64,000 bases of DNA from an uncultured virus (IMG/VR IMGVR_UViG_2643221865_000004) (lineage: Duplodnaviria; Heunggongvirae; Uroviricota; Caudoviricetes), in IMG/VR virus record IMGVR_UViG_2643221865_000004. The stretch is one strand, 5' to 3'. The position numbers were made by a program, and so were the translations under genes. Each line of letters starts with the position of its first letter. Position 1 is the first letter of the stretch. Under the pieces are notes generated by a model. That model did no database searches, was not told the DNA's origin, and saw only the letters and a list, made by a program, of their open reading frames with translations. Shown one piece after another: positions 27,442-28,332 of the stretch.

Positions 27442-28332
27442 ATGACTTCTCCGCTCCCTTCCCTGTTCGCCGTCCGCGTCGACGAGCTGAACCGCTTCGT
27501 CAACGACCACGGCCGCCTCCCGAACTCCCAGGTCGGCGACACCGCTGAAGCCACCCTGGCGAAGTGGTGCCAGGCGCAGCGGAACCGAACCGAAGGCCGT
27601 CTCGGAACCATGACCGACGCCGAAGCCGACGCGCTCGAGGCGATCCCCGGCTGGTACTGGCAGGCCCCGGACGGCAGCACCGTCTGGAAGGACCGCCTCG
27701 CCGAACTGCAGGCGTTCGTCCTCACCCACGGCGACATCCCCCGCCGCCGTGGCGACACCGCCGCTGAGAAGTCACTCGCCAACTGGGTGCGCGTCCAGCG
27801 TGCCAAGAAGACCAACCCCGAGACCGTCGGCACCCTCACCGTCGAGCAGTCCGACGCACTGGAGGTGATCCCCGGATGGTGGTGGTCCGGCCAGCCGACC
27901 TCAACGTTCAAGTCCGCCGCCGACGACCTGCTCGCTTGGGTGAAGTCGACCGGCACGTTCCCGAAGGAGTACACCACCGACAAGGAGGAGCGCCGCCTCG
28001 CGTCGTTCGTCACCCGGTACCGCGACTCCTTCCGCGCCGGCACCCTCGGCCGCCCTCAGGCGGAACAGCTGGAAGCCATCCCCGGCTGGGACTGGCAGAT
28101 CGCCCCCGCCGAGCAGTGGTGGGACACGTTGATCTCCGTCGCAGCTTGGGTGACCGAGAACGGACGCATCCCCCGCGGCAAGTGCGACGACGAGACCGAG
28201 CGCAAGTTCGGTCGCTGGTGCGAGCACGCCCGCCGTGCAGCGAAGCCCGGCTCCGCGTCCACCCTGAAGATGACCGACACCCGCCGCCGCGCCCTGGAGG
28301 CTTTCATCCCCGGATGGTACTGGTCCAAGTGA
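27442..28332 (+). CDS. Helicase-associated (HA) domain repeat protein (4 repeats)
   Basis: Four ~70-aa repeats: L..FV..HG..P......E..LA.W...QR......L......LEAIPGW.W. Confidence 0.8.
   Translation: MTSPLPSLFAVRVDELNRFVNDHGRLPNSQVGDTAEATLAKWCQAQRNRTEGRLGTMTDAEADALEAIPGWYWQAPDGSTVWKDRLAELQAFVLTHGDIPRRRGDTAAEKSLANWVRVQRAKKTNPETVGTLTVEQSDALEVIPGWWWSGQPTSTFKSAADDLLAWVKSTGTFPKEYTTDKEERRLASFVTRYRDSFRAGTLGRPQAEQLEAIPGWDWQIAPAEQWWDTLISVAAWVTENGRIPRGKCDDETERKFGRWCEHARRAAKPGSASTLKMTDTRRRALEAFIPGWYWSK

Follow-up and report, generated by a model that had tools for sequence, protein, structure and literature searches.

A stand-alone four-repeat HA-domain protein encoded between cas3 and cas8e in a divergent type I-E CRISPR-Cas operon: a candidate accessory of Cas3

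The DNA analysed here (the window) is a stretch of 64,000 nucleotides (nt) deposited as uncultured virus record IMGVR_UViG_2643221865_000004 in IMG/VR, and it corresponds to positions 509971-573970 of contig C5 in the bacterial assembly of 11 contigs from which it derives. Its plus strand carries a divergent type I-E operon with the order cas3, HA, cas8e-cse2, cas7, cas5, cas6e and a degenerate cas1. The second of these genes, which encodes nothing but repeats of the helicase-associated (HA) domain (Pfam PF03457), is the subject of this report. The features of the gene and of the spacer in front of it are as follows.

27442..28332, plus strand: HA-repeat gene (P0001, 296 amino acids), matched by Pfam HA in four stretches, with the stop codon at 28330-28332
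27442-27663, plus strand: HA gene repeat 1
27664-27888, plus strand: HA gene repeat 2
27889-28098, plus strand: HA gene repeat 3
28099-28329, plus strand: HA gene repeat 4
27401..27441, plus strand: 41-nt spacer between cas3 and the HA gene, read directly from the sequence, with GAGGGG at 27433-27438

The plus-strand open reading frame (ORF) at 27442-28332 is uninterrupted and translates into a product of 296 residues; its third-position GC content is 0.90, from which we take the annotated frame to be the coding frame. The Pfam HA profile recognizes the product in four stretches (E value 3e-32; 111.1 bits against a cut-off of 28.4), and Pfam finds no further domain and no helicase core in the same polypeptide. 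This search, which had been proposed as a check, bears out the description of a stand-alone protein of four HA-like repeats in the initial annotation of the locus. Repeats 1 to 4 end in LEAIPGWYW, LEVIPGWWW, LEAIPGWDW and LEAFIPGWYW, respectively, and are 27-42% identical to one another in pairwise comparison. P0001 is thus a real stand-alone four-repeat HA protein, a member of a known domain family at a new position.

The ATG at 27442 lies 41 nt past the cas3 stop codon (27398-27400) and is preceded by the GAGGGG sequence, while the alternative in-frame start, a TTG at 27415, has no site of this kind. The spacer also contains a 7-nt direct repeat, GCATTCC, at 27401 and 27420, the copies being 19 nt apart, possibly by chance. 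At the other end, the TGA of the HA gene (28330-28332) overlaps a GTG (28329-28331) that is in frame with Cas8e, as had been reported; an in-frame ATG at 28314 is the alternative start of Cas8e, and both candidate starts overlap the HA gene. Similar overlaps of 1-4 nt are found at the remaining junctions of the operon, and the HA gene is probably co-translated with the type I-E operon. The proposal that it heads a Cascade transcription unit is not borne out: it begins directly behind cas3, and between 23800 and 34200 the plus strand holds neither a promoter-like nor a terminator-like site, the four terminator-like sites of this region (4.2 expected) all lying on the minus strand. For this reason a single transcription unit from cas3 to cas1 is the simplest reading.

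The cas genes of the operon are:

24605..27400, plus strand: cas3 (931 amino acids; HD nuclease and superfamily 2 (SF2) helicase, with HD, GxGKT and DEVH motifs visible); Pfam Cas3_HD 2e-33 and Cas3-like_C_2 1.3e-27, PADLOC Cas3e 1.1e-133
28329..30398, plus strand: cas8e-cse2 fusion (689 amino acids from the GTG at 28329; alternative ATG at 28314); Pfam CRISPR_Cse1 at residues 21-259 and CRISPR_Cse2 at residues 563-680
30395..31615, plus strand: cas7 (406 amino acids); Pfam Cas_CT1975 1e-55; ATGA overlap with the preceding gene
31594..32310, plus strand: cas5e (start uncertain); Pfam Cas_Cas5d 4.2e-24, NCBIfam casD 4.2e-27, above its cut-off
32307..32861, plus strand: cas6e; Pfam CRISPR_assoc 1.3e-22
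32861..33661, plus strand: divergent cas1-like gene; start taken from the alignment with locus L004 (Agromyces humi), earliest possible start a TTG at 32819

As in canonical type I-E systems, Cas3, Cas8e, Cse2, Cas7, Cas5e and Cas6e follow one another in order, and all six score above the Pfam cut-offs; Cas8e, Cse2, Cas7, Cas6e and Cas1 score under those of NCBIfam. Unlike the canonical systems, the operon contains the additional HA gene, its Cas8e and Cse2 are fused, its Cas1 is degenerate, and neither cas2 nor an array was found with it. The cas8e-cse2 fusion in one ORF is also present in loci L004 and L022. Cas6e retains the conserved N-terminal His and the C-terminal GxGRxKxFGCG motif in an alignment with 17 relatives, which suggests that RNA is still bound. 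Cas1 has no Pfam match, and the NCBIfam Cas1e model reaches 6.3e-19 (68 bits against a cut-off of 215.6) over the C-terminal half only. It carries substitutions at columns where 13 other relatives do not vary, among them five with a confirmed array in the fetched locus; examples are an E replaced by D in the RGxEG block and a D by S in the DLAD block, columns which we take to be catalytic positions. The Cas1 of the nearest relative is altered at many of the same columns.

No ORF of the size of cas2 follows cas1. The window yielded no CRISPR array, and two home-made finders detected none across the 11 contigs of the assembly, where an unassembled array would escape notice. Two candidates elsewhere in the assembly were rejected: C4:683,647-683,975 is an 82-nt tandem repeat beside a tRNA gene, and the pair at C4:482,892 (C4:482,560-482,980) belongs to a dispersed GCGGCCAC..GGCGAGC motif present on at least five contigs. 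The operon of the window (28329-33661) and that of A. humi (L004 7938-13261) may together represent a derivative sub-branch of type I-E that is dead for adaptation. The reduced I-E variants of Streptomyces (Shmakov et al. 2018) have likewise lost adaptation genes; they are without cas3 and have STAND NTPases as neighbours, according to the section on such variants in PMC12231136, whereas in the operon described here cas3 looks intact and a cas1-like gene is present.

AlphaFold2 models P0001 with about three helices per repeat at a mean predicted local distance difference test score of 92, the packing between repeats being uncertain at a predicted template-modelling score of 0.54. The modelled repeats conform to the Pfam HA unit of approximately 64 residues and three helices. 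The top structural match is 2kta, a solved HA domain (Bacteroides vulgatus A6KY75), with a modest Z score of 5.5, a root-mean-square deviation of 3.1 and 74 of 74 residues aligned; it is the sole chain with Z of at least 5 among the 48,161 that were compared. Foldseek with the whole model gave no match at E ≤ 0.001, and a PDB sequence search with P0001 none at E ≤ 1. P0001 thus resembles the Pfam family and 2kta in its four profile matches and three-helix units, and differs in being made of HA repeats alone and in lying inside a cas operon. DNA binding by the HA domain is reportedly the topic of a 2013 paper by Mills et al., going by its title.

A word-indexed search with P0001 returned only the protein itself, while an exhaustive search gave 4130 HA relatives, all of them at most 44% identical. 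HA domains were said in the initial annotation to trail SF2 helicases as a rule, which overstates the case: 53 of the best 149 relatives have at least 900 residues, but 44 have at most 520, and many of those that were scanned consist of HA repeats only. The relatives include proteins in which an Mrr_cat or HNH nuclease, ResIII and Helicase_C are followed by 6-16 HA repeats (P0124, P0148, P0153, P0129). P0001 is not covered by any PADLOC model. Similar HA proteins are encoded in 59 plasmid records, while neither a tblastn search of 50,697 phage records nor a scan of viral contigs with patterns from P0236 returned a match, although phages and viruses beyond these sets may still carry the family. 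Searches of the main text of articles on the helicase associated domain with CRISPR, and on PF03457, revealed no report of an HA protein in a cas operon.

A narrower relationship emerges from a quick maximum-likelihood tree of 46 rows, built from P0001 and the 45 hits that, among those with at least 250 query residues aligned, had the highest scores for a single high-scoring segment pair (the other 104 hits were left out). In it P0001 groups with P0140, P0135, P0236 and P0393 on one branch with SH-aLRT (Shimodaira-Hasegawa approximate likelihood ratio test) support of 98. The alignment of this subfamily is colinear, repeat by repeat, and a peculiar insertion in the last repeat is common to its members; the other four proteins have one extra N-terminal repeat that is not found in P0001. 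With a subfamily profile P0001 scores 407 bits, compared to at most 125 for the other HA genes of its genome, and is the only member among nine; a search of 400 genomes of the same family with this profile produced no further member.

Two members of the subfamily lead back to Cas3. P0236 and P0393 are encoded on JGI contigs of 246,813 and 18,224 nt, and a cluster of Cas3 proteins that are 61% identical to the Cas3 of the window (P0278/P0394) is encoded on contigs of exactly 246,813 and 18,224 nt. From these matching sizes we conclude that the same two contigs carry both the HA and the Cas3 gene, which on the smaller one places the two within approximately 14 kb of each other. The Cas3 of the window falls into a tight subclade (58-66% identity, SH-aLRT 100) with three sub-branches, and the P0278/P0394 lineage and the window belong to different ones. 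Two changes are therefore needed to account for the distribution of the HA gene, that is, either long retention or repeated gain. Since the subfamily shares contigs with a related Cas3, Cas3 rather than Cascade would be the likely partner of the HA protein.

We accordingly prefer, at a rough probability of 45%, the explanation that the HA protein is an optional, lineage-restricted DNA-binding partner that acts in trans with Cas3 and is not a core subunit of Cascade. Its HA repeats would bind duplex DNA, and the protein would act together with Cas3, itself an HD nuclease and SF2 helicase, presumably through direct contact. Cas3 and the separate HA protein would then amount to a two-polypeptide version of a nuclease, SF2 helicase and HA repeats in a single chain, in which the HA protein would keep Cas3 in place, or in the right orientation, on the DNA that it acts upon and could in this way affect interference. 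The proposed arrangement resembles the enzymes composed of Mrr_cat/HNH, ResIII, Helicase_C and HA in having nuclease, helicase and HA in the same order. It differs in that the nuclease is an HD-type Cas3 and the HA part is a separate polypeptide, and the comparison is one of function, not of family membership. HA fusions to DNA-targeting proteins also appear in the figure legends of PMC12191111 and of a Tn7 preprint. As far as these legends describe them, TniQ-HA of Tn7-like elements and the HxK/PLD nuclease-HA proteins of END defence similarly place HA on proteins that find or hold DNA; they are fusions rather than separate genes and are not linked to CRISPR.

We consider it rather unlikely that the narrow stand-alone subfamily is a true, hitherto unrecognised partner of Cas3 in a Microbacteriaceae-type branch of I-E systems (Cas8e and Cse2 fused, adaptation disabled and the own array lost), where it would supply Cas3 with anchoring on duplex DNA, perhaps in plasmid-versus-plasmid conflict on megaplasmids.

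Several results weigh against a partnership with Cas3, the foremost being the rarity of the arrangement. We collected 80 related I-E loci from species genomes and 29 from metagenomes, and searched them in six frames with a hidden Markov model (HMM) of the HA repeats of this genome at E ≤ 1e-3. No HA ORF was found in any of these loci, genomic or metagenomic. In a control the model picked out all of 149 unrelated HA proteins and not one of 120 Cas7 proteins. The metagenomic loci were found through a scan for Cas7, none being closer than 44%; a metagenome scan with the Cas3 alignment confirmed no relative. Nor do precomputed domains place PF03457 in any of the 119 listed Cas3 homologues, one of which (P0380, 1508 residues) carries a Cse1 domain and is a Cas3-Cse1 fusion. 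In 40 loci in which cas3 lies ahead of cas7 on the same strand, the window's own included, the interval from the end of cas3 to the beginning of cas7 has a median of 2,333 nt, which leaves room for cas8e and cse2 only, compared to 2,995 nt here. HA is not a general type I-E component, as had been recognized from the outset.

The position between cas3 and cas8e is, moreover, occupied by unrelated sequences in other lineages. In a Nocardioides (L047 6864-7656) it holds a CRISPR array, and in two rhizobial loci (L067 5900-7382 and L068 5732-7318) an ArsR-MIP-ArsC arsenic cassette on the same strand. The Nocardioides layout is that of the Corynebacterium diphtheriae variant I-Ea, in which the array lies between cas3 and cse1, as described in the part of PMC12231136 that treats it. 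These varied contents indicate that the cas3-cas8e junction accepts cargo. The Cas3-Cse1 fusions and the other actinobacterial variants of the cas3-cse1 junction show the same plasticity, with HA in none of them.

The nearest operons give a similar result. The closest one fetched, that of A. humi (63% identity for Cas3 and 51% for Cas7), shares the Cas8e-Cse2 fusion and the divergent Cas1, and has neither cas2 nor an array within the 21-kb locus. Its cas3-to-cas7 distance is 3,366 nt, and the slot is filled by two unrelated ORFs without a Pfam match, in which no remnant of HA was found (scores of at most 3 bits). The single HA protein of A. humi is encoded on another contig, is generic and falls outside the subfamily of P0001. 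Agromyces sp. NPDC057679 and Frigoribacterium sp. SL97 have Cas3 and Cas7 accession numbers that are two apart, from which we deduce that one gene lies between cas3 and cas7 and that the slot has no HA gene in these two genomes either. The difference is three in two Cryobacterium genomes, where the fetched loci confirm cas8e and cse2 between the two genes. A Cas3 search of 100 Agromyces genomes recovered A. humi only, and tblastn searches of plasmids gave no match for Cas7 at 1e-20 and no close relatives, the best matches listed having approximately 32% identity for Cas3 (P0278) and 28% for HA (P0236). The idea that a group of Cas3 proteins (P0275-P0279) is without Cascade, prompted by a Cas7 listing with no entry from their contigs, was rejected, the listing being incomplete and missing also the A. 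humi Cas7 that is present in L004.

The link through shared contigs is itself limited, in that the contigs of 246,813 and 18,224 nt are near-copies from one lineage, and what they reveal is a shared contig and not an observed gene order. Furthermore, the isoelectric point of P0001 is 7.7, near neutral and not basic. None of the eight other HA genes on C5 follows a helicase gene, and none of five HA-only genes inspected on other actinobacterial plasmids lies beside one. The notion that stand-alone HA genes follow helicase genes as a rule was therefore rejected (0 of 8 on C5, 0 of 5 in plasmid contexts). Given the near-neutral isoelectric point and the mixed neighbourhoods of the other HA-only genes, we make no strong claim for the Cas3 partnership. 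For the accessory Cascade/Cas3 subunit put forward in the initial annotation the evidence is divided: most of the close operons do without the gene, yet in a second lineage members of the subfamily are encoded on contigs that also carry a related cas3, which points to Cas3 more than to Cascade.

The replicon suggests another explanation. C5 measures 701 kb with a uniform GC content of 0.65, compared to 0.68-0.69 in nine of the ten other contigs, and its genes are mostly hypothetical. The genome amounts to 4.54 Mb, compared to 3.2-3.8 Mb in seven congeners. Curtobacterium plasmids of 546-608 kb have HA genes in common with C5, as well as a thymidylate synthase gene at about 80% nucleotide identity, and we infer that C5 is a megaplasmid-like replicon. 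All 24 matches to the HA repeat in the genome, which belong to nine genes, are located on it. The eight genes other than that of P0001 adjoin genes for hypothetical proteins, PcfJ, DprA, DUF4192, a sigma factor, a helix-turn-helix (HTH) protein and an AAA_16 protein. A DUF4192 gene adjoins an HA-only gene both on C5 (358-361 kb; L086 6118-8980) and on the Arthrobacter plasmid pNicSoilB8 (L092 2322-5462), and this may be a recurring pair. A pstSCAB-phoU cluster on Rhodococcus opacus pROB01 (L093 3922-5816) contains an HA-only gene that has a 4-nt overlap with the stop of a response-regulator gene.

It is accordingly quite possible, if on balance somewhat doubtful, that the HA gene is one of many such genes on actinobacterial plasmids, which landed in a permissive cas3-cas8e junction and rides on cas transcription while serving the plasmid in a way unrelated to CRISPR, such as by general DNA binding. 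The confinement of all nine HA genes to C5, the occurrence of the family in plasmid and not in phage records, the unrelated cargo in the same junction of other lineages and the absence of HA from 109 related I-E loci are all in keeping with this, and the pROB01 gene demonstrates a comparable overlap within an unrelated cluster. On the other hand, the HA gene is no recent copy, having only 25-33% identity to its eight paralogues, and P0001 is the sole member of its subfamily in the genome. The contigs of a second lineage that encode both this rare subfamily and a related Cas3 also argue against an accidental passenger, as does a stop/start overlap as precise as those in the rest of the operon. 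If the HA gene is nevertheless a passenger, then the cas3-cas8e junction accepts unrelated cargo, and neither embedding in the operon nor a stop/start overlap is evidence of function.

We regard it as improbable that the HA protein is an autoregulator encoded by the operon, which binds DNA at or near the cas genes and tunes their expression. The three-helix repeats of the model could plausibly read DNA, other HA-only genes adjoin HTH, WhiB, sigma factor or response-regulator genes, and there is the short direct repeat in the 41-nt spacer upstream. Seven nucleotides may easily be repeated by chance, however, most relatives in the subclade have no HA gene, and our literature searches found no regulatory role reported for PF03457.

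A protein-based targeting module, in which HA repeats would replace crRNA (CRISPR RNA) and aim Cascade or Cas3 at DNA, had also been suggested; we found no support for it and consider it very improbable. No array was found in the assembly, cas2 is absent, Cas1 is degenerate, and the TniQ-HA fusions in the legends cited above offer a parallel. A. humi, however, with the same fused operon and likewise no cas2 and no array in its 21-kb locus, has no HA gene there; the retained His and C-terminal motif of Cas6e suggest that RNA is still bound, and four degenerate repeats display no evident sequence code. Least credible, to the point of being almost negligible, is a reading in which P0001 would be a self-inhibitor, or resemble an anti-CRISPR, and keep Cas3 in check on the replicon that encodes it, for which no support was found either: the mobile replicon, the position beside cas3 and a fast-evolving family (no relative above 44% identity) would suit it, but P0001 has no match among phages or in PADLOC, an inhibitor encoded inside the operon that it inhibits would be unusual, and we know of no anti-CRISPR with an HA fold.

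The remainder of the window contains several other features. Just upstream of cas3 there is a small defence cluster in which a DinG-like helicase (20796-23147, minus strand; PADLOC type IV-A DinG model, 1.9e-53) lies beside an EcoRI-like type II restriction nuclease (22867-23898, plus strand). Phage-like nucleotide and replication genes are found at 39903-45120 and 57350-61755, where they encode a thymidylate synthase, an NAD-dependent DNA ligase, a protein with a dATP/dGTP diphosphohydrolase N-domain and two RNase_T exonucleases. An Ltp lipoprotein gene is located at 5662-6108.

The operon provides a natural case of a Cascade-Cas3 machine that may be past spacer acquisition, and its layout is common to A. 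humi. Accessory proteins known to act with type I Cas3 are few. If the HA protein does work with Cas3 in trans, it would show how the loading or processivity of Cas3 can be tuned, and the widespread but uncharacterised HA domain would gain a role that can be tested.

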